From Escherichia phage vB_EcoM-G28, in sequence record NC_054916.1: 64,000 bases of DNA. One strand, given 5' to 3'. Positions 5,697 through 43,839 of this stretch are shown piece after piece. The notes under the pieces are model-generated. The model did no database searches. It had not been told where the DNA came from and saw only the letters and a list, made by a program, of their open reading frames with translations. Within the stretch, counting starts at the first letter, position 1; each line of letters starts with the position of its first letter. Position numbers and translations under genes: made by a program.

Positions 5697-6121
5697 TGCT
5701 TCTGATCCCTGAAACTCATGAATTAGTTCTCGAGAATGTCGAAGCACTTATTCCTGAAGCACAGGGTCGCTTTGACGAATTGTCTTCTGCTTTAAATAAA
5801 GACGATATAAATACAATTGTCGAGAATATGCTTGATGATGAAACTGATTTAGCGGTTGCATTAGCTTCTATTAATGAAAATATGCCGTTAAATGAATTCA
5901 TCGTTAAACATGTTTCCGCCCGTGGTGAAATTACTCGCACTAAAGACCGCAAAACGCGTGAACGTAATGCATTTCAAACCACTGGGCTGTCTAAAGCAAA
6001 ACGTAGACAAATTGCTCGTAAAGCTACCAAAACGAAGATTGCCAATCCAGCAGGTCAATCTCGTGCTCAGCGTAAGCGTAAAAAAGCTCTTAAACGCCGT
6101 AAAGCATTAGGATTAAGCTAA
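5696..6121 (+). CDS. 68: Prohead core protein gp68
   Basis: 141 aa with a basic C-terminus; synteny. Confidence 0.8.
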
Positions 6122-6759
6122 TGAATGAACCCCAATTACTAATTGAAACTTGGGGTCAACCTGGCGAAATTATTGATGGCGTGCCAATGCTTGAATCTCA
6201 TGATGGAAAAGACTTAGGTTTAAAACCGGGTTTATACATCGAAGGAATATTCATGCAAGCGGAAGTCGTCAATAGAAATAAACGTCTTTATCCAAAACGC
6301 ATATTAGAAAAAGCGGTAAAAGACTATATTAATGAGCAAGTTTTAACTAAACAAGCTCTCGGAGAATTAAATCATCCTCCACGCGCTAATGTTGACCCAA
6401 TGCAAGCCGCTATCATTATAGAAGATATGTGGTGGAAAGGAAATGACGTATACGGACGAGCTCGTGTTATTGAAGGTGACCACGGTCCTGGAGATAAATT
6501 AGCAGCTAATATTCGTGCCGGATGGATTCCAGGAGTTTCTTCTCGTGGATTAGGTTCATTGACTGACACAAATAAAGGTTATCGTATCGTAAACGAAGGA
6601 TTCAAATTAACTGTAGGTGTTGATGCAGTATGGGGTCCAAGTGCTCCAGATGCATGGGTAACTCCTAAGGAAATTACCGAATCACAGACGGCGGAAGCCG
6701 ATACAAGTGCCGATGACGCCTATATGGCTCTCGCAGAGGCCATGAAAAAAGCGTTATAA
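6121..6759 (+). CDS. 21: Prohead protease gp21
   Basis: 212 aa; position and size as T4 gp21. Confidence 0.9.
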   Translation: MNEPQLLIETWGQPGEIIDGVPMLESHDGKDLGLKPGLYIEGIFMQAEVVNRNKRLYPKRILEKAVKDYINEQVLTKQALGELNHPPRANVDPMQAAIIIEDMWWKGNDVYGRARVIEGDHGPGDKLAANIRAGWIPGVSSRGLGSLTDTNKGYRIVNEGFKLTVGVDAVWGPSAPDAWVTPKEITESQTAEADTSADDAYMALAEAMKKAL

Positions 6760-26328: not shown

Positions 26329-26382
26329 TCCTCATGTTATGTCAGTAAGATTATTATAACACAACACGAGGGACTTGTAAAC
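26329..26382 (-). promoter_or_regulatory. Early promoter plus leader module (54 bp) identical to the one upstream of alc
   Basis: Minus strand carries GTTTACA, a 17-nt spacer, TATAAT and a GAGGA Shine-Dalgarno; same 54-mer at 41844..41897 and 42195..42248. Confidence 0.6.
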
Positions 26383-28439
26383 TATATTTTGAACTTTTTA
26401 GACATTTCGTTGATGTTAACCAAAGAAGCCAAGATTTGAGAAACTTCGTTTTCCTCTTCTTTTGATTCTTCTACAAGGAATTGATTAAATCCAGCCATTG
26501 GACGAACTTCACCAGTTTCCATTAGATGGTCGCCATCATATACCGATTCTTCTAACTGTTCAGAAGGAGGAACGATTGTGCCTTCGATTAGATACTTGTT
26601 ATAAGCAGTTTCTTTCATCATGTACGTACTCACTTTATTAATCTTCAGCAAAATTCCACGCGGTAGAATAACTTCAGCTTCTGATGGAAATCCTGATAAA
26701 TGACCTGGAACGATAACTTTGATTCGCTCAGCTCCTTTAATTACCATACCCGCGCTAGTTTCAGCATCTTCATTGGCATACGTAGAATGACTGCCCATAT
26801 GCATCAAATCTTCAGCATCAACTGAACCTTCTCCTTCACCAGAAAATACTGTGCCGGAATCATCTAGAGCCATATAGTTTTTACCATACTCACCGAAGAT
26901 ATTTGGTTTAAGCGATGTGGATACGAAGTTCTTGAAGTAGAACATTTTATTTTCAATATTATGACGTAAAGTTTTAAAGGTAACTTCTTGTCCACGGTAA
27001 AGTGTAGTTCCTGGAGGAAGAACTGATCCTTTGGCAAAGGCAGAATCCATTGTCTCGATGTGTTTAATAGCTCGTTCCATATATTCTTCACGGGTAGAAT
27101 CCGGTTTACCTAAAAGGAACGAGTTCATTTCAACATATGAATCTGCACAATAATCTTCAATTACATCAGACTCAGCTTGAGTTAATCCTTTTGGAGTTAC
27201 TTCAGTACTTGCATATTCATACGCTTGAGAAGCAGACTCATTAATCAATTTATAAATGCCATTCATGACAAATTGAACAATAGCTACCTTTTCATCTGGT
27301 GTAGCTTTAGAACCTTTAACTAAATCATTGACGATTTTCTTAATAACATCAAAGCTATTAGAAATATTAATGTCAGCAAGATCACTTAAAATTTTATCAG
27401 TTTTATAATCAAAAAATTCTTTATTCTTTAAATATTCTTGAGAACCTTGATATGATATATCGCTCTGTAACTTGATAGATGGATCACGTAAACGCGCATG
27501 AGCCAATGCAATATGATTTCGGAAGCTTTCTAATTCATAATCGCTAGATTTAAAACGGGAAGCACTTCTCATACCACCGATAGCTCCTTTGCTGAAGTTT
27601 GAACCAACCTGAATAACGCCAGAGTTCATTGGTCCTTCTGCTTTATATACCGGAACTTTAGATTCAAACTCTTGATATTTCTTAGCAGCGAAGCTATCAC
27701 CCTGAAGTGAAGCATCGACAGTAGAATATTGAGCTTGTGCTGCTAATCGACGACTAATTTTAGTTTTCTGAATAACAGCTTGATCCGTACGCTTATCATT
27801 TTCTAAAGCAATAGAAGCAGCAACAGCAACAGCTTTAGGAACAGCATTGCCTGTTTTAACATCTACATAAACATCACCAACCTTTGATTCAACTTTTGTG
27901 AATAACTCAGTTGAAATAGGAGGTACACCTGGAATGTCTTCTAAATTGGCATTTTTACGGTAAACCATAATATATGCATATTTCTTATCATAGTCCCAGA
28001 TTTCCTTTAAAAGAACATATCGACCTGCTCCTTTAGTACGTACTAAACGGTCGGCAATAACTTGCATTTGACGAGCTGCACCGTTTGTTTTACTCTTTAG
28101 TACGCGGAATAAGCATGCGTCAATTTTGTACTGTTTCATTGTCTGAAGAGCAGTATCAAAAACCGCATTAATAACACCAATTGGATTTCCACCCAAGTTT
28201 TTAAGTTTAACGAGCGATAGTTTCTCATTAACACCTATCATTACGATATGCATCATTTTATCGCCTGGCTTAACGTTTTTATTTGTATCACCGCCAGAGG
28301 TGTATGTACAAAATCTAAATCCAGGAAGCACGCTTTCTTCACCGGCTTGAATAGCAAAAATTTGAGGTATTTTATGCTTAGGATTTAAGTTAACAACCGG
28401 CGCCGAAGCGCCGTCAAATAATTCTGTAATAAGTTCCAT
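26382..28439 (-). CDS. Alt-family mono-ADP-ribosyltransferase, paralog 1
   Basis: 685 aa; C-terminal R-S-E signature (LYRG, FVSTSL, EAEVILPRG); N-terminus MELITELFD shared with the neighbouring paralog. Confidence 0.8.
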   Translation of the reverse strand: MELITELFDGASAPVVNLNPKHKIPQIFAIQAGEESVLPGFRFCTYTSGGDTNKNVKPGDKMMHIVMIGVNEKLSLVKLKNLGGNPIGVINAVFDTALQTMKQYKIDACLFRVLKSKTNGAARQMQVIADRLVRTKGAGRYVLLKEIWDYDKKYAYIMVYRKNANLEDIPGVPPISTELFTKVESKVGDVYVDVKTGNAVPKAVAVAASIALENDKRTDQAVIQKTKISRRLAAQAQYSTVDASLQGDSFAAKKYQEFESKVPVYKAEGPMNSGVIQVGSNFSKGAIGGMRSASRFKSSDYELESFRNHIALAHARLRDPSIKLQSDISYQGSQEYLKNKEFFDYKTDKILSDLADINISNSFDVIKKIVNDLVKGSKATPDEKVAIVQFVMNGIYKLINESASQAYEYASTEVTPKGLTQAESDVIEDYCADSYVEMNSFLLGKPDSTREEYMERAIKHIETMDSAFAKGSVLPPGTTLYRGQEVTFKTLRHNIENKMFYFKNFVSTSLKPNIFGEYGKNYMALDDSGTVFSGEGEGSVDAEDLMHMGSHSTYANEDAETSAGMVIKGAERIKVIVPGHLSGFPSEAEVILPRGILLKINKVSTYMMKETAYNKYLIEGTIVPPSEQLEESVYDGDHLMETGEVRPMAGFNQFLVEESKEEENEVSQILASLVNINEMSKKFKI

Positions 28440-28442
28440 GAT

Positions 28443-30539
28443 TTATCCTTGAACGAACTTGTAAGGCATGTTTGTAATATCTATGCAAGACGCAATAATT
28501 CCAAGAGATGATTCTACTTTCTGTTTAACATTTGATGAAACAAATGATGCAAAGTCAACTCTGTCTTCTATTTCAATATCACCTGTCATTGCAATTACTT
28601 CACCAGTTTCCATTAGACGGTCACCGTCATAAATTACTGATTCGGTGAGTTCTTCCGTAGTCATAACTTCAGCTTGAATGAGTTTTGTATTATTAGATGT
28701 TGTTCCGTCATTATTAGAAGCATCAGTTATTTTATTAACTTTGACCATCAATCCGCGTGGTAGAATAACTTCAGCTTCTGTTGCTATTCCGAGACTTCCT
28801 GGATATACAACATTAACTTTATGAGCTCCATCAATTGCCCATCCTATTTGAACTTTAACGTATTCAGGATTTTCTTTATACGCTCTTATTTCGTTTGGAT
28901 TAATAGTTATTCCTTCTTCATTTTTATCAACTGTTAATTCATTACGAGCTTCTGGTTCTAAAAGACCAATGCCAGCATGTGTAATTCCAAAACGCCCAAA
29001 AATGATAGGAGTTAAAGAAGTAGATACAAAATTTCTGAAATAGAACACTTTATTTTTAACTAGCGCTTCGTATATAGGAGCAGTCATACTTTGAGCACGA
29101 TAAACTGTAATGCTTTCTGGTATACGGTCACCGTTTTCAAAAGCTGAATCTAAGTTATTTATAGCAGATTCAATTTCTTTTTCACTCATTACATCATATC
29201 GTTCTGGATTGTAGCGTCCTAAAAGAAGATTATTGATGTCAGTATATCCTGAACCGCAATACTCTCTAATGCCGCGCTTTTGTGATGGAGTATATTTAGA
29301 ACCATCACGGGCAATAGTAATATCAATCATTGGACCTGCACCAATTCCAGAAAAACTATAAATCATTCGTTTGATGAATTTAGTTTTTGCTGCGTTCCAG
29401 GAATTTTTAGTTATTTCTTCCCAGACTTCATCTGGCTGCCCTTTACGAGTTTTATTATGTTTATCAAGCCAAGTATCTTTATATTCTTCAAAGAATTTAT
29501 TAATAGCTGCTGCATACTTCTCTAAACATTTTATTGAAGTAGTTGGTTCATTTTTGATCGCGTTAAAAATTACGTCTTTAATTTTTTCAGAAACTTCATT
29601 AACCTCACTTTTTGAAAAGAATTTATAATCATAGTGAAGTTCATCTGCAGTTCCTTCGGCAATAATTTTTGCTGCTTTAGTTTTAGAAGCTAATGAATTA
29701 ATTCCAAGCTTCATTTCTTCTGCTTCGGGAATTAAAGGAGCGGTAGCAGGTTTATTGAAATTAGCTGCGGTAGATTCATACTTCTGGAATAATTCGCTTT
29801 CAAATCTAGAAGATTCCAATGACTGACTTTGCGCAATTGCTCTACGGGAAATTTTAACTTTAACGATTACAGCTTGGTCAGAACGTTTATCATTTTCTTG
29901 CGCAATAGATGCAGCAATTGCCTCATTTTTAGTTACTTGAGCTCCAGTATCTTTATTGATATAAACATCGCCGACTTTCGATTCAACTTTAGTAAAGAGC
30001 TCGGTACTAATTTCCGGAACTCCTGGAATGTCTTCTAGTGATACATTTTTGCGATGTATAAGAATATATGCATACTTTTTATCATAATCCCAGAGTTCCT
30101 TAAGAAGGACGTATCTGCCACCTGAACGACTACGGATAAGTCTATCAGCAATAACTTGAATTTGTTGAGCTTGACCAGCAGTTTTAGACTTAAGAATACG
30201 GAGCATACAGGCATCAATTTTATACTGACGCATCGTCTGCATTGCAACAGTAAAAACTGAATTGATATAATTAATTGGGCTTGGACCAAGACCTTTTAAT
30301 TTGGCAATTGAACCTTTAGCAGTTAATGTAAAAGGAACAATATGCATCATTTTATCGCCCATTTTTAAATCGCGATTAGTATCACCTCCAGATGTATAGG
30401 TACATAAACGAAAGCCCGGTTGTTCAATTGCATCATCAACGTGAACTGAAAAAATTTGTGGTATTTTCTTCTTTGGATTTAAGTTTGTAATCGGAAGAGT
30501 AGTATCTTCGTCAAATAATTCTGTAATGAGTTCCATCAT
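28443..30539 (-). CDS. alt: Alt-family mono-ADP-ribosyltransferase, paralog 2 (gene adjacent to the ligase side)
   Basis: 698 aa; C-terminal R-S-E signature (VYRAQ, FVSTSL, EAEVILPRG); position upstream of gene 30 cluster. Confidence 0.8.
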   Translation of the reverse strand: MMELITELFDEDTTLPITNLNPKKKIPQIFSVHVDDAIEQPGFRLCTYTSGGDTNRDLKMGDKMMHIVPFTLTAKGSIAKLKGLGPSPINYINSVFTVAMQTMRQYKIDACMLRILKSKTAGQAQQIQVIADRLIRSRSGGRYVLLKELWDYDKKYAYILIHRKNVSLEDIPGVPEISTELFTKVESKVGDVYINKDTGAQVTKNEAIAASIAQENDKRSDQAVIVKVKISRRAIAQSQSLESSRFESELFQKYESTAANFNKPATAPLIPEAEEMKLGINSLASKTKAAKIIAEGTADELHYDYKFFSKSEVNEVSEKIKDVIFNAIKNEPTTSIKCLEKYAAAINKFFEEYKDTWLDKHNKTRKGQPDEVWEEITKNSWNAAKTKFIKRMIYSFSGIGAGPMIDITIARDGSKYTPSQKRGIREYCGSGYTDINNLLLGRYNPERYDVMSEKEIESAINNLDSAFENGDRIPESITVYRAQSMTAPIYEALVKNKVFYFRNFVSTSLTPIIFGRFGITHAGIGLLEPEARNELTVDKNEEGITINPNEIRAYKENPEYVKVQIGWAIDGAHKVNVVYPGSLGIATEAEVILPRGLMVKVNKITDASNNDGTTSNNTKLIQAEVMTTEELTESVIYDGDRLMETGEVIAMTGDIEIEDRVDFASFVSSNVKQKVESSLGIIASCIDITNMPYKFVQG

Positions 30540-30574
30540 ATCCTCTCTAGTGTTTATTCTATTTATAAAATTAA

Positions 30575-30588
30575 AGGCCCGAAGGCCT
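30575..30588 (-). terminator. Stem-loop between the 62-aa ORF and the alt genes
   Basis: aggcc-cgaa-ggcct. Confidence 0.4.
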
Positions 30589-30777
30589 TTAATAATCTAT
30601 TGGTAAGAGAGTACGATATATTTCAAACTTTGGACCTTTTTCATAAGCATCAAAAGTTTCTGTGAATTTATTATAAGCATATGCATCTATAAATTCAATC
30701 ATGATTTGTGATACAGAAGTAGAAACATCTCCACCTTCTTTTTGAGCCACGACAATTGTTTCTAAGTAAGCTTTCAT
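30589..30777 (-). CDS. Hypothetical 62-aa protein
   Basis: ORF overlapping the gene 30 stop. Confidence 0.45.
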   Translation of the reverse strand: MKAYLETIVVAQKEGGDVSTSVSQIMIEFIDAYAYNKFTETFDAYEKGPKFEIYRTLLPIDY

Positions 30778-32237
30778 AAACCAGTTACCTCATGAAAATC
30801 ACCAAATACATCTTCGAATGTATTAGCTTTAGTTTTATCTTCGCGTAAACGAATCGCAATCGGAAGAAATAATTTAACGTAATCAGTGCGGCCATCAGAT
30901 TTTAACCAACCGTTGCATTCGCACTCTAGAATTTTTCCAATATAATAATTTTGGTTTTCCATAATGCGAGTACGGTCAAGTTCATGCGATTTTACACCGG
31001 CTTTATCTTTTAAGCCTGAACCAGCATTTACTTTAATTTTTCCACACTCTGACTCAAGAATAAATCCACCTGCTTTAGTAGGGTCTTTACGGTGAGGATA
31101 AATTCCTACAATTTTTAAATCAACATCAATTACTTCTTTAAATTTATAGAGATTTTTTGAACGAGCATTTTCCCATAATCCATCGATATTTTTGAGAATA
31201 ATACCTTCAAGACCTTGGTCAATATACTTTTTATAAATTACCTTAGCTTCATCTAGGTTATTTACTACCTGGTTTTCAATTAAAATTACTTTATCATATC
31301 CAGATGTCATTTGTTCTAGTTTAGAAAAACGTACATCATATTTCAAACGAAATGCAGGAAGACCGTATATTTCTACCAACGGTACATAATCCCAGACCTG
31401 AAACTTCATGCATTGAGCTTCTTTTTCAGAAATGGTTCCTTTTAAGGATTTATTGGCGATTCCATTAGAAGTAGTACGAGATTCCGCTACTTCGGCGAAT
31501 TCTTTAGCTTTACTAATTTCAGGATAAGCATCAAAAAGAAAATCTAGTCCTTCTGGTTCCTTTTTAACTTGCTCATGGTATACCAATTCGCCATCAATTA
31601 ACACACCTTCTGGATGAATCTGGCGGGCTTCAGCAGTCATTTTGATTAACTCTTCCTTAAGAAGATCTAATCCTAGATATTCATTACCAGCTCGCGATAA
31701 AAGACGAACATCATCTAATTCATCGCCTCGGACTTCAGCAAAACACCGAGCTCCATCTGCTTTTAACTGCGCAAAAGCTGGAAACTTGATATTCTTACTA
31801 ATGCCTTTTTCATCATAAGAACTTGCCAGCATTTGAGGTTGTTCAGGAATTAAACCCGGCCAAACTTTGTTTGCAATAGATACTGAAGCACCACATTCAA
31901 GGTCTCGCATCATAACTCGACGCAAAACTTCAACATCATCCTTTTTACCATCGGTGATATATCCAGTTAATTCCTCAATTGCTGCATTGCCAGTTAATTT
32001 CCGAGTAGCTAACGTGAATTCAATGAAGTCAAGCATATCGGTAATAGTCAGCATTCCAAAACTCTGGGTAGCAATACCAGGTTTAGGCCATTTCTTGATA
32101 TAATACTGTAACCCACGAGAATAAGTCAGACGATATACTCGTTTAAGCAATTCATTATCTTTATTCTTTTCAAGAATTGCTTGCTTCTGTTTAGTTGATC
32201 CAATAGATGCTATTTCATTCAGAATTTTAAGAATCAT
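30774..32237 (-). CDS. 30: ATP-dependent DNA ligase gp30
   Basis: 487 aa; KADGAR adenylation motif; size as T4 DNA ligase. Confidence 0.95.
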   Translation of the reverse strand: MILKILNEIASIGSTKQKQAILEKNKDNELLKRVYRLTYSRGLQYYIKKWPKPGIATQSFGMLTITDMLDFIEFTLATRKLTGNAAIEELTGYITDGKKDDVEVLRRVMMRDLECGASVSIANKVWPGLIPEQPQMLASSYDEKGISKNIKFPAFAQLKADGARCFAEVRGDELDDVRLLSRAGNEYLGLDLLKEELIKMTAEARQIHPEGVLIDGELVYHEQVKKEPEGLDFLFDAYPEISKAKEFAEVAESRTTSNGIANKSLKGTISEKEAQCMKFQVWDYVPLVEIYGLPAFRLKYDVRFSKLEQMTSGYDKVILIENQVVNNLDEAKVIYKKYIDQGLEGIILKNIDGLWENARSKNLYKFKEVIDVDLKIVGIYPHRKDPTKAGGFILESECGKIKVNAGSGLKDKAGVKSHELDRTRIMENQNYYIGKILECECNGWLKSDGRTDYVKLFLPIAIRLREDKTKANTFEDVFGDFHEVTGL

Positions 32238-32503
32238 TGTTCATCCTTCAGAGTTTGATTTACATCTCTATTATAAATCAATTCATCATTAAGCTCAGGC
32301 AAAGACTTATGATATGTAGTTCTAACTTTATTTCCTTGCATCCAGTGCTTGACGTAAATGAAACCTTGCTCTACACATTTTTTAAAAATTCGTTCGTCTT
32401 TTTGAGCACGGAATTCTGGATTGCATCTAAAAAATTGATTTACGTGTCCATAATCACGTGTAGTATTACCTTCATTTTCATAAATAGTATGAACAACAAA
32501 CAT
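32234..32503 (-). CDS. Hypothetical protein (T4 30.1 position)
   Basis: 89-aa ORF; synteny. Confidence 0.55.
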   Translation of the reverse strand: MFVVHTIYENEGNTTRDYGHVNQFFRCNPEFRAQKDERIFKKCVEQGFIYVKHWMQGNKVRTTYHKSLPELNDELIYNRDVNQTLKDEQ

Positions 32504-33339
32504 TAGAATGCTCCTTGAAAAATATTATCACCACAAGTAGGTCTATTATACAAATACTCTATGCCGCCGGGTTTAATATAGTTCCATGTCTGAAACGGAT
32601 GTGTCTGATATGGATGATATGGATTATAAGGATTAAATCCAGGAGTTCTCCAGGTAGTGTTCCAAGGAAAAGAATCGTTTTTAACCATCTTCTCAATTAC
32701 ATCTTTTATAGCTTTTTCACTATCAAAACTTTCTTTATTTTCCTTTGGCGAAAAAAGCTTATTTTCTACATCATTCCATGTATAAACTCGCTGAGCAGTT
32801 TTTGGAATATTGTCACGCTCTCCTCGAGCCATCCAATAAACAGGAACATTTAATATTTCACTCGCGTGATCGCAGTGGTGAGCGAGATCGTCAATATAAC
32901 AAATTACGTTATATTTCTCTTTTGCCTTTTTGAACAACTCTTCTTTTGAAGAATCATGACCACACATCAATACTTCTGAGAAGGCACCAGGAAAAAGAGC
33001 ATTCAAATTAAATTGACGATTCAGCAGAGCGTCAATAGAATCACCCAGTGCTGTAACAGCTACAAAATTATAATCTTCTTTTAATTTGTTAATTACACAC
33101 AGGGCATCTTTATATGGAGACAAATAGCGAATAAAATCTGAACGATTATACTTTTCGATTAATTTAACACCAAGTTCTTCATCGCAATTAAAGAGCTTAC
33201 CAGGAGAAATAAATTTTTCGTCCTGAATCATTTTTAAAATATGTTCCAACGGAAGATTATATTTTTGGGCAAAATAAGGAAGGCCTGATTGCCAGCTTAA
33301 ACATACTCCATCAATATCAGTTAAAATAGTAGGCTTCAT
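32503..33339 (-). CDS. HAD-superfamily hydrolase-like protein (T4 30.2 position)
   Basis: 278 aa; N-terminal ILTDIDGV matches HAD motif I (DxDG). Confidence 0.55.
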   Translation of the reverse strand: MKPTILTDIDGVCLSWQSGLPYFAQKYNLPLEHILKMIQDEKFISPGKLFNCDEELGVKLIEKYNRSDFIRYLSPYKDALCVINKLKEDYNFVAVTALGDSIDALLNRQFNLNALFPGAFSEVLMCGHDSSKEELFKKAKEKYNVICYIDDLAHHCDHASEILNVPVYWMARGERDNIPKTAQRVYTWNDVENKLFSPKENKESFDSEKAIKDVIEKMVKNDSFPWNTTWRTPGFNPYNPYHPYQTHPFQTWNYIKPGGIEYLYNRPTCGDNIFQGAF

Positions 33340-33800
33340 AGAGAGTCTCTTAATAGGTTTAACACATCAATAAATTCAGCTTCGGTTAGTATTGTATCAT
33401 CTTTTGTTAGACCACTAGCCATGCTGTGCTTCAAAACTTTTCCTTTCGAGGCTTGTAATGCATCGCGAAAGCCCTTGTTTTGAATCGCTGCTTCAAAATA
33501 TGCATTTGTGTATAATTCTTTCCACGCTGGGGAGTATCTTGAAAATGGAACTCCAAGCCAGAAGAGGGTTCCGCGGTCCTGAGCTCTTGCATAAGACCTT
33601 CCAGCTTGTTGGGCGGCAAGCCCGGATAACCCAAATATACGACGTTGTTGTTCAACATTTTTCACCTTGCATCCTTGGAGGAATCCTTCAAGACCTCCAA
33701 ATTGAATACCATCCATAACGAAAGGCCAATGGGCGAAATTACTTAATGCACATGATGGCCACCTAAAATTACTTCTAATCTCTAACTCAGACATTTTCAA
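33336..33800 (-). CDS. NADAR/YbiA-like (DUF1768) protein (T4 30.3 position)
   Basis: 154 aa; LSNFAHWPFVMDGIQFGGLEGFLQGCKV matches the NADAR signature as I remember it. Confidence 0.6.
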   Translation of the reverse strand: MKMSELEIRSNFRWPSCALSNFAHWPFVMDGIQFGGLEGFLQGCKVKNVEQQRRIFGLSGLAAQQAGRSYARAQDRGTLFWLGVPFSRYSPAWKELYTNAYFEAAIQNKGFRDALQASKGKVLKHSMASGLTKDDTILTEAEFIDVLNLLRDSL

Positions 33801-33993
33801 TGCTTATAATTTCAACATCAGCCCAATGACCATAGTTTGGTAGACGAAATTCAACTGGCCAGTCACTGCCTTTTTCTAATATAATAGACTTAACTTGTGG
33901 TTCTTCGTGTTCATCAGTATACGGATTTTTATCTGTTACTTTATATGTGACCTTAATGTACTGAATTCCAAAAATCTTATTAATTATATTCAT
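33787..33993 (-). CDS. Hypothetical small protein (30.x block)
   Basis: 68-aa ORF; synteny. Confidence 0.5.
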   Translation of the reverse strand: MNIINKIFGIQYIKVTYKVTDKNPYTDEHEEPQVKSIILEKGSDWPVEFRLPNYGHWADVEIISIENV

Positions 33994-34187
33994 ACTAATT
34001 CCTTTAATCCGTAGATAGGAGATAATTCATCGCCCATACGAAGGTCTTCATTCCCATCTACCCAAGAAACAATATAAGCCTCTTTTACTTGAACATCTCC
34101 CAATTTAAATGCGGGTAAAACCTTAGAAATTAATCCAGGTATACCAACTCCCTTTAATTCAACGGTTTGGCCTAAAAAGAATTTCAT
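33990..34187 (-). CDS. Hypothetical small protein (30.x block)
   Basis: 65-aa ORF; start overlaps the upstream stop. Confidence 0.5.
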   Translation of the reverse strand: MKFFLGQTVELKGVGIPGLISKVLPAFKLGDVQVKEAYIVSWVDGNEDLRMGDELSPIYGLKELV

Positions 34188-34474
34188 TAGAACCTCATCT
34201 GAAAACCATGTGATTTAACATTACCGCCATTAATATCAGAACTATTAATTTCACGTGCAATTGAGGGATCAATGTCAATTTCGCCATTAAGTTTAATGAT
34301 AGACAAAGTATCACGCCCATTTACTGTGCGGAACTCTAAAGGACAAACCACATCAACGTAGTTTTTAATCGATTCACTGGTAGGTTGCAAATGGGCAGGA
34401 AGGTCTTTAGGCGCCTTTGAGAAAACTACTTCACAGAAGTTTTTACGAGTATCAAAATAAGTGGTCATAAACAT
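34187..34474 (-). CDS. Hypothetical protein (30.x block)
   Basis: 95-aa ORF. Confidence 0.5.
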   Translation of the reverse strand: MFMTTYFDTRKNFCEVVFSKAPKDLPAHLQPTSESIKNYVDVVCPLEFRTVNGRDTLSIIKLNGEIDIDPSIAREINSSDINGGNVKSHGFQMRF

Positions 34475-39261: not shown

Positions 39262-40465
<1,204 letters not shown>

Positions 40466-40992: not shown

Positions 40993-41342
40993 TTAGAAAG
41001 GTCCTGGATGTCTTCTGCGAACTTGTTGAAGGAGTTGTTGATTTGTTTTTCAACCAATCCTGGCTTATGAGCCACCACATCCGCCTTCTTTGCATCTTTG
41101 CGCAGTTTTTCATTTTCACGCTCAATAGCAGCAATTGCCTCACGATTTTTATTATTCATCGCATCAATATAATTATACTGAATTCGCAAATTATTTAATG
41201 CTAAAGCGTTTTCATTGGCTGTTTTTGTAATTTCTGCAACAGACGTTTCTAATCTTTCTACCTTATTTTTTAAAATAATAGATGTTCCGCCAAATGCTAT
41301 TACAAGTAATAGCAATCCAGCTGTAAAATTACTTACATGCAT
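40989..41342 (-). CDS. Inner-membrane spanin (T4 pseT.3 equivalent)
   Basis: 117 aa; N-terminal transmembrane helix then predicted coiled coil; directly upstream of the lipoprotein ORF. Confidence 0.7.
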   Translation of the reverse strand: MHVSNFTAGLLLLVIAFGGTSIILKNKVERLETSVAEITKTANENALALNNLRIQYNYIDAMNNKNREAIAAIERENEKLRKDAKKADVVAHKPGLVEKQINNSFNKFAEDIQDLSK

Positions 41343-41839
41343 AAAGTTTTAATAACCTCTATAATATCGTCTTGAGAAAGACCGTTAATTAAAATATGAT
41401 GTTCAGCTGGAGATTTAGAAATTTTAAAGCATGCCTCAACATCTTCTGCCATATCCGATGCACTACGATTTGGATTACTAATTCCAAGACGATGTTTTCC
41501 CGTCAAAGGATTAACGATGATGTAGCATTTACAGCTATTAATGTGAACATTAGGTTGAGTCTGATTAATGAACACATCACAATCATATTTCGCAAGCTGA
41601 TTTTCTAAAAAGACTTTCATCTCCTCAACCGCATCAGGAAGCATATCACGGGCTTGCTCAAGACGACGATTTCGATATTCTTTGATGGTCGTTTTCCGCT
41701 TAACTTGCTTAGCTAAATCTTTCTTAAGATCGGTGATATATCCAACTCGACGATTTCCTTTGAATACAGAAATCCCATCTGTAGTATCACCGTATGCTTC
41801 AACGACCATCTCAGTAGTAATAAGCTGCAAATCCATCAT
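41333..41839 (-). CDS. alc: Alc (host transcription shut-off protein)
   Basis: 168 aa; position between rnlA and the pseT block as in T4. Confidence 0.75.
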   Translation of the reverse strand: MMDLQLITTEMVVEAYGDTTDGISVFKGNRRVGYITDLKKDLAKQVKRKTTIKEYRNRRLEQARDMLPDAVEEMKVFLENQLAKYDCDVFINQTQPNVHINSCKCYIIVNPLTGKHRLGISNPNRSASDMAEDVEACFKISKSPAEHHILINGLSQDDIIEVIKTLCM

Positions 41840-41843
41840 AAAG

Positions 41844-41897
41844 TCCTCATGTTATGTCAGTAAGATTATTATAACACAACACGAGGGACTTGTAAAC
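41844..41897 (-). promoter_or_regulatory. Early promoter plus leader module for alc (copy 1)
   Basis: Identical 54-mer to 26329..26382. Confidence 0.6.
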
Positions 41898-41903
41898 AGC
41901 TTA

Positions 41904-42190
<287 letters not shown>

Positions 42191-42194
42191 AAAG

Positions 42195-42248
42195 TCCTCA
42201 TGTTATGTCAGTAAGATTATTATAACACAACACGAGGGACTTGTAAAC
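42195..42248 (-). promoter_or_regulatory. Early promoter plus leader module, duplicated copy
   Basis: Third identical copy of the 54-mer, inside duplication copy 2. Confidence 0.55.
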
Positions 42249-42251
42249 AGC

Positions 42252-43839
<1,588 letters not shown>

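Follow-up and report, generated by a model that had tools for sequence, protein, structure and literature searches.

Gene Content of the 30.2/30.3 Locus

Two neighbouring genes of Escherichia phage vB_EcoM-G28 (NC_054916.1), 30.3 and 30.2, are the subject of this analysis, which covered a stretch of 64,000 nucleotides (nt) of that genome, called the window here. Gene 30.3 (adfN; 33336–33794, minus strand; 152 amino acids, aa) was assigned as a phage-clade NADAR DNA ADP-ribosylglycohydrolase from its match to PF08010, its identity to the T4 protein and an AlphaFold2 (AF2) model compared by Foldseek. Gene 30.2 (32503–33339, minus strand; 278 aa) was assigned as an NT5C-like phosphatase of the HAD superfamily, in which a core with a C1 cap (residues ~1–200) is followed by a disordered, Pro/Tyr-rich C-terminal tail. 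An earlier interpretation from the letters of the DNA (the sequence-only reading) had placed the two genes in one operon with a pair of Alt-type ADP-ribosyltransferases and had seen in the four a plausible, though speculative, writer/eraser toolkit for ADP-ribosylation. It is considerably more probable that the locus holds two separate early enzymes, the NADAR AdfN and an NT5C-like HAD phosphatase, which form neither an operon nor a writer/eraser pair with the late, packaged Alt.

The window comes from a Tequatrovirus (T4-like phage). The 2.2-kb region round 30.2/30.3 shares 96–97% DNA identity with many Tequatrovirus genomes, and the gene order (alt, alt.1, 30 (DNA ligase), 30.1, 30.2, 30.3, 30.4 ... 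rIII, 31, cd, pseT) agrees with the T4 reference map. The start of 30.3 is placed differently by the list of open reading frames (ORFs), which takes a TTG at 33800 (33336–33800, 154 aa), and by the T4 annotation, which takes an ATG at 33794 (152 aa). Its stop codon overlaps the start codon of 30.2 in an ATGA (33336–33339, minus strand) that can be read directly from the sequence, which bears out the earlier claim that the 154-aa and 278-aa ORFs are translationally coupled; overlap or abutment of the two genes recurs in many related loci. Both lie in a packed, co-directional early cluster, 30.6-30.5-30.4-30.3-30.2-30.1-30 (DNA ligase)-alt.1 (30589–34474, minus strand, from the ORF coordinates and the T4 map), with an overlap of 1–8 nt at every junction. 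In time-resolved omics of T4, 30.3, 30.2, 30.1, 30 and alt.1 were all classed as early RNAs (PMC9697503), in keeping with the description of 30.2 and 30.3 as an early pair. Inside this string of genes, from 30.6 to alt.1, the two would be co-transcribed as well as translationally coupled.

The proteins are nearly those of T4, with 150 of 152 residues identical in the product of 30.3 (gp30.3) and 275 of 278 in that of 30.2 (gp30.2). Where the nucleotides differ from T4, the codon is mostly a synonymous one (10 of 12 differences in 30.3; 37 of 41 in 30.2), and 30.2 and 30.3 are, by this codon pattern, real genes under purifying selection. In relatives with 86% identity, the changes are likewise concentrated at third codon positions.

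The same cannot be said of 30.3', an alternate-frame T4 ORF of 75 aa that corresponds to 33431–33658 (minus strand) inside 30.3 and was considered as an overlapping gene. Its ATG is lost in most relatives, usually to ATT, ATA or ACN, its amino acids drift much faster than those of the main frame, and one relative carries an internal stop; 30.3' is probably not a real gene. A scan of 26–37 kb for sigma-70 promoters and terminators returned 37 sites where 40 were expected from shuffled sequence, so that the region is not richer in such sites. The best minus-strand sigma-70 candidates lie upstream of 30.7 and 30.8 (34979–34950 and 35336–35308), and the scan was not relied on for the early promoter.

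Gene 30.3 Encodes AdfN

The Pfam family PF08010 (Phage_30_3) is matched by gp30.3 over its full length, with an E-value of 7.7e-70 and a score of 233 bits, where the cut-off is 36. Of the 46 members of the gp30.3 family, 17 match the generic NADAR model PF08719 (best E-value 1.5e-7), but the window protein itself does not. When these 46 members were made into a profile, the top match in the Protein Data Bank (PDB) was E. coli YbiA (E-value 0.005). The Pfam comparison proposed by the sequence-only reading was thus favourable as far as PF08010 and the relatives of gp30.3 are concerned, but it gave neither PF08719 for the window protein nor any family for gp30.2. Single-sequence searches of the PDB with gp30.3 and gp30.2 returned only noise, and neither protein has a match in NCBIfam or PADLOC.

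The AF2 model of gp30.3 has a pLDDT of 93 and a pTM of 0.88. Compared with the PDB by Foldseek, its sole significant matches are three solved NADARs, each with a probability of at least 0.99: YbiA (2b3w; E-value 1.5e-5, TMq 0.68), the Phytophthora enzyme PnNADAR with ADP-ribose (8bau) and the DarG1-type NADAR of Geobacter lovleyi (8bat). Across the 46 family members, E36 and the clade-specific H123 are invariant and K43 is at least 90% conserved; all three are present in the window protein, and the NADAR-type motifs ALSNF, E36-G-F-L-Q, K43 and H123 are conserved. A His at the position of H123 is what defines the phage clade of NADARs (PMC11125620, PMC11543638). The 154-aa ORF, which had been recognised earlier as of the NADAR/YbiA type, is indeed a NADAR-superfamily enzyme by family, conserved residues and predicted structure. 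The window protein differs from that of T4 by the substitutions Q22H and I125M; since both are towards the family consensus, the window allele of adfN is presumably active.

The NADAR finding is already known, as the identity of T4 gp30.3 with AdfN and its action against DarTG1 have been published (Toxins 2024; Nat Commun 2025). It was shown in vitro that T4 gp30.3 strips ADP-ribose from guanine in DNA (PMC11125620), and that it also acts on G-ADP-ribose in RNA, though not on thymidine-ADP-ribose (PMC11125620, PMC12945103). The protein was renamed AdfN when it was found by genetics to be necessary for T4, and sufficient for RB69, in resisting the DarTG1 toxin-antitoxin defence; deletion of adfN makes T4 sensitive to DarTG1, and the mutations E36A and K43A impair AdfN (PMC11825919). 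No report of an activity of AdfN on Arg-ADP-ribose proteins was found in the literature. In the reading preferred here, AdfN is a minimal NADAR-fold N-glycosidase which, during infection, cleaves the ADP-ribose-guanine N2 bond placed on phage DNA by the host toxin DarT1, and this cleavage restores replication in hosts carrying DarTG1. The experiments concern the T4 protein, from which, at 99% identity, we infer the guanine-ADP-ribose glycohydrolase activity and the anti-DarTG1 role of the window copy. The suggestion that the locus might counter ADP-ribosylation of DNA by the host is in agreement with this published work (PMC11825919, PMC11125620).

The methods of the 2024 paper give the T4 NADAR construct as "residues 1-208", compared with the 152 aa of T4 gp30.3 (PMC11125620). 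The figure is probably a count that includes the tag, or an error.

gp30.2 Is a Predicted HAD Phosphatase Resembling 5'(3')-Deoxyribonucleotidases

The HAD superfamily can be recognised in gp30.2 by a Rossmannoid core fold, a motif I of the form DxDx(T/V), a Ser/Thr in motif II, a Lys/Arg in motif III and an acidic pair in motif IV. In an alignment of 42 close relatives these motifs are D8-I-D10-G-V, T96, K132 and D150-D151, which are invariant or nearly so (T96 and D150-D151 at least 90% conserved, K132 invariant). Distant relatives were collected by an exhaustive profile search (1,433 clusters); among 62 of them, with 21–33% identity, D8, D10, R108 and K132 are invariant, T96 and D151 nearly so, and G11 and V12 at least 90% conserved. 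The HAD phosphatase motif I noticed earlier in the 278-aa ORF is therefore present, and it is accompanied by conserved motifs II–IV. The structural model is confident for residues 1–200 and places a helical C1 cap (helices 16–86) between motifs I and II, whereas the C-terminal tail is predicted to be disordered. Structure prediction, which the sequence-only reading had put forward as a check, gave the anticipated folds for both proteins, NADAR for gp30.3 and HAD for gp30.2. From the DxD pair and the acidic motif IV, read in the light of established HAD enzymology, we infer that gp30.2 is a phosphatase and not a dehalogenase or an epoxide hydrolase. Some GenBank records label the gene "putative phosphatase", "haloacid dehalogenase-like hydrolase" or "5' nucleotidase".

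Structure is not decisive by itself for placing gp30.2 in a subfamily, and the sequence evidence converges on NT5C. The best PDB match of the family profile is the cytosolic 5'(3')-deoxyribonucleotidase (cdN), in a region that reads DGVLxx[W/F]xSGL when the two are taken together (DGVLxxWxSGL in gp30.2 and DGVLADFESGL in cdN). W16 of gp30.2, at least 90% conserved and eight positions after the nucleophile, aligns with the Phe of DGVLADFESGL; an aromatic residue at this position presumably stacks on the base, as in the structures of cdN and mdN. NT5C (PF06941) is the commonest Pfam match among the distant relatives (32 of 62, best E-value 4e-10) and is found more often than any generic HAD model. 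The tightest Foldseek fits of the gp30.2 model are the deoxyribonucleotidases 3bwv, 2jao, 2i7d and 4yih. The fold and the catalytic motifs thus make gp30.2 a HAD phosphatase closest to the 5'(3')-deoxyribonucleotidases; its substrate and role can be proposed from this likeness. It would be a phosphomonoesterase of the HAD superfamily, Mg2+-dependent and with a helical C1 cap. Its closest likeness is to the 5'(3')-deoxyribonucleotidases; most likely, therefore, it would dephosphorylate, in the nucleotide pool of the infected cell, a small compound that resembles a (deoxy)nucleoside monophosphate. No evidence was found that ties gp30.2 to ADP-ribose chemistry; its nearest family is that of the 5'(3')-deoxyribonucleotidases and its conserved neighbour is the DNA ligase, not the NADAR.

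This neighbour raises the question of whether gp30.2 might heal nucleic-acid ends together with the ligase, removing 3' or 5' phosphates at nicks in the manner of the HAD domain of T4 polynucleotide kinase (Pnk). Among 39 dereplicated lineage clusters, the ligase gene is the most stable neighbour of gp30.2, next to it or near it in 36, but the NADAR is near it in only 16. The Pnk phosphatase, which the window also encodes (39262–40170), is another DxDxT HAD enzyme, and one distant relative of gp30.2 weakly matches HAD_PNKP. However, in the gp30.2 model a large helical insert, the C1 cap, separates motif I from motif II. In the established classification of HAD enzymes, a C1 cap is associated with small-molecule substrates, and phosphatases of polynucleotides have no cap. 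The sequence affinity of gp30.2 is to the NT5C nucleotidases and not to PNKP, and where the T4 backbone is syntenic, a position beside a core gene says little about shared function. An end-healing role is considered very unlikely, and a nucleotidase that acts on mononucleotides is the preferred reading of gp30.2.

The C-terminal tail of gp30.2 (residues ~220–278; 32503–32680, minus strand) has a high content of Pro, Tyr and Asn and closes with a short motif, G-(I/T)-E-Y-(L/W)-x-x-(Q/R)-P-T. Many homologs from T-even, Klebsiella-type and Enterobacter-type phages conserve this motif, while the homologs of RB69-like, Acinetobacter and Aeromonas phages are entirely without the tail. The tail may be a docking peptide.

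Linkage Between gp30.2 and AdfN

The two families both belong to the quasi-core of T4-like phages, their phage records numbering 1,451 and 1,509 and their host spectra being near-identical. At 37 of 80 viral loci centred on gp30.2, a gene of the gp30.3 family closely precedes it on the same strand, with anything from an overlap to a gap of 1.2 kb. Of 80 loci centred on the NADAR, by contrast, just 19 include a gp30.2 relative within 6 kb, and in several T4-like genomes the NADAR is found 55–60 kb from gp30.2. The alignment of 42 gp30.2 relatives takes in divergent proteins of Klebsiella, Citrobacter and Erwinia phages, the kind of lineage in which 30.2 and 30.3 are unlinked, and the catalytic residues do not vary in it. 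Since the NADAR is often distant while these residues stay invariant, the adjacency of the two genes, judged from the loci compared, is old and recurrent but dispensable, a case of lineage-specific synteny and not an obligate two-component system. The chemistry points the same way, as removal of ADP-ribose from guanine needs no phosphatase.

The distant NADARs, which are ~40% identical, were seen at eight loci: L107 (IMGVR_UViG_2974666281, 5998–6450), L109, L112, L125, L145, L148, L152 and L161. In genomes of this type, they sit among small ORFs without Pfam domains, and this suggests that the NADAR was relocated or independently acquired in these lineages. The neighbours of the NADAR were checked in one genome, L107, where none had a Pfam domain and no alternative partner emerged.

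Several observations weigh against treating the two enzymes as separate. The same-strand order of NADAR followed by HAD is found again in T4-like lineages that have diverged widely (phages of Acinetobacter, Aeromonas and Vibrio type), and with greater frequency than the small ORFs nearby, 30.1 and 30.4–30.6; on this account some functional link between gp30.2 and the NADAR may exist. Moreover, T4 AdfN is thought to need a T-even factor, which would make the picture of an AdfN that works by itself incomplete. It was reported that T4 AdfN fails to detoxify DarT1 in uninfected E. coli and rescues non-T-even phages weakly, and its discoverers postulated a further T4 factor that stabilises or localises it (PMC11825919). 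As regards the phosphatase, the gp30.2 of the window itself matches nothing in Pfam, NCBIfam or PADLOC, and the literature yielded no functional study of gp30.2 or of phage NT5C-like nucleotidases.

If gp30.2 were the factor that potentiates AdfN in T-even phages, or otherwise worked in the same anti-DarT pathway, two routes could be imagined. It could bind, stabilise or localise AdfN, perhaps via the conserved motif of its C-terminal tail. Alternatively, it could dephosphorylate or clear ADP-ribosylated guanine mononucleotides from the precursor pool and so block their entry into DNA; Pierisin-type guanine ADP-ribosyltransferases are listed as also modifying G mononucleotides (table in PMC12945103). 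The ATGA coupling of 30.2 with adfN would suit such a partnership, as would the near-identical host distributions of two quasi-core families and the NADAR-then-HAD order in 16 of the 39 clusters, very divergent ones included. So would the behaviour of T4 AdfN, which is fully active only in T-even infections, where its authors postulate a T4 factor (PMC11825919), and the fact that RB69, the phage rescued by ectopic AdfN, is of the Mosigvirus-type lineage, which has a gp30.2 homolog. However, AdfN alone is active in vitro, and hydrolysis of guanine-ADP-ribose requires no phosphatase step. The NADAR does not adjoin gp30.2 in 23 of the 39 clusters, and all catalytic residues of gp30.2 are nevertheless kept; 61 of the 80 NADAR-centred loci are without a gp30.2 relative within 6 kb. 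About 100 uncharacterised T4 genes are available as alternative candidates, which lowers the prior for any one of them. Because the linkage is loose across lineages and the other candidates are many, a potentiating role of gp30.2 is regarded as very unlikely, and two enzymes that act separately remain the preferred explanation.

Relation to the Alt ADP-Ribosyltransferases

Two Alt-type enzymes are encoded nearby on the same strand, as had been seen in the sequence; their genes stand in tandem, and both are intact and full-length. The first gene, alt (28443–30539, minus strand; PF03496, E-value 1.3e-37), encodes an ADP-ribosyltransferase of 698 aa with 70% identity to T4 Alt; it lies outside the 30.2/30.3 unit and is considered here as context only. 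The second (26382–28439, minus strand; PF03496, E-value 3.9e-20) codes for a complete paralog of 685 aa that shares 41% identity with the first. Alt is a virion-packaged enzyme whose targets are arginines of host proteins. The divergence of the first paralog from T4 Alt is concentrated in the central and catalytic part, and at the position of the second, intact paralog T4 holds only the remnants alt.-1 and alt.-2.

A GC-rich hairpin lies across the stop codon of alt.1 (30570–30593, minus strand; -14.2 kcal/mol, z -3.3 against shuffles), and it is likely a terminator or an RNA-stability element that closes the early cluster. A pattern search, confirmed in the sequence, placed the T4 late-promoter motif TATAAATA at 30560–30567 (minus strand), ~20 nt upstream of the start codon of alt. 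The hairpin and then the promoter form a compact early-terminator/late-promoter junction within 30560–30593. In T4, alt was classed as a late gene by time-resolved omics (PMC9697503). Co-transcription of alt with 30.2/30.3 is not borne out, given the hairpin and late promoter between alt.1 and alt and the early versus late timing of the RNAs, and the operon shared with the ADP-ribosyltransferases is not supported.

A toolkit composed of 30.2, 30.3 and the two Alt enzymes would imply a NADAR that undoes or modulates the Alt-type marks which the phage itself makes. The idea draws on the position of the four genes, on the same strand within ~7 kb, on the 29 of 39 clusters in which Alt lies no more than 6 kb from gp30.2, and on a remark by Iyer et al. 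in 2022 that the NADARs of T4-like phages are found among early genes near ADP-ribosyltransferases (PMC9503650). However, such co-location reflects the conserved synteny of the T4 backbone. Here alt stands behind the hairpin with a late promoter of its own; in T4, it is late and its product is packaged in the virion, while 30.2 and 30.3 are early RNAs. The substrates also disagree: AdfN acts on guanine-ADP-ribose in DNA and RNA and not on thymidine-ADP-ribose, while it is established knowledge that Alt targets protein arginine. The phenotype of the adfN deletion is explained by the host's DarT1, which writes the mark that AdfN has been demonstrated to remove, and no evidence was found that AdfN reverses the marks of Alt, ModA or ModB. 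Because alt is late with its own promoter and the guanine-ADP-ribose comes from host DarT1, the writer/eraser toolkit is unsupported and is held to be extremely improbable, which leaves AdfN and the phosphatase as early enzymes independent of Alt.

Elsewhere in the window, a perfect direct repeat of 300 nt occurs at 41696–41995 and 42047–42346, with a spacing of 351 nt. It copies the 5' part of a 168-aa ORF (41333–41839, minus strand), and the second copy gives rise to a truncated ORF of 63 aa (41999–42190). The repeat may have arisen by tandem duplication in the recent past, or it may be an artefact of the assembly.

Significance

AdfN is the orphan, antitoxin-like enzyme of a lytic phage that undoes a DNA-modifying defence of the host, as was published in 2024–2025. 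To this, the present analysis adds that the Tequatrovirus of the window carries an intact and presumably active adfN allele. For gp30.2, one of the ~100 T4 genes without known function, the placement among NT5C-like nucleotidases provides a concrete biochemical hypothesis. The question of the missing potentiator was raised explicitly by the authors of the AdfN study, and gp30.2 is a candidate as the coupled neighbour. Taken as a whole, the finding is ordinary and largely known already; the fold assignments of the sequence-only reading were right, while its system-level interpretation was mostly wrong.

Comparison with Known Systems

The closest known system is T4 AdfN. The window gene occupies the position that adfN has in T4 and overlaps 30.2 in the same way, and its product has the same E36, K43 and H123, the same predicted fold and an intact C-terminal helix that is absent from RB69. 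The two proteins differ only by Q22H and I125M, from which no functional difference is expected. With YbiA (2b3w), DarG1 and other BC4488-type NADARs (e.g., 8bat), gp30.3 shares the YbiA/NADAR fold and the Glu/Lys catalytic pair, and would share the chemistry, hydrolysis of guanine-N2-ADP-ribose. However, the residue in the last strand is a His in the phage clade, an Asp in DarG1 and a Glu in YbiA. The phage clade is also without the N-terminal extension of DarG1, has no adjoining DarT toxin gene, and cannot stand in for DarG1 in uninfected cells.

T4 Alt, ModA and ModB belong to the NAD+/ADP-ribose biology of the same phage, and the alt genes lie 2–7 kb downstream on the same strand. They differ from AdfN in having another fold, in being late and packaged where AdfN is early, and in taking protein arginine as their class of substrate.

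For gp30.2, the nearest counterparts are the 5'(3')-deoxyribonucleotidases (NT5C, PF06941), such as human and mouse cdN and mdN and the S. epidermidis enzyme 3bwv. The likeness consists in the fold of HAD subfamily I with its helical C1 cap, in the DxD nucleophile and acid/base pair with the Thr, Lys and DD motifs, and in the aromatic residue at +8 followed by SGL, which can be aligned between gp30.2 and cdN. On the other hand, gp30.2 is only ~15–20% identical to these enzymes and falls below every Pfam threshold, and R108, N111, R172 and W188 are invariant residues specific to its own family. It also carries, in T-even and some Klebsiella-type phages, the ~80-aa disordered Pro/Tyr-rich tail that ends in a GIEYLxxQPT-like motif.

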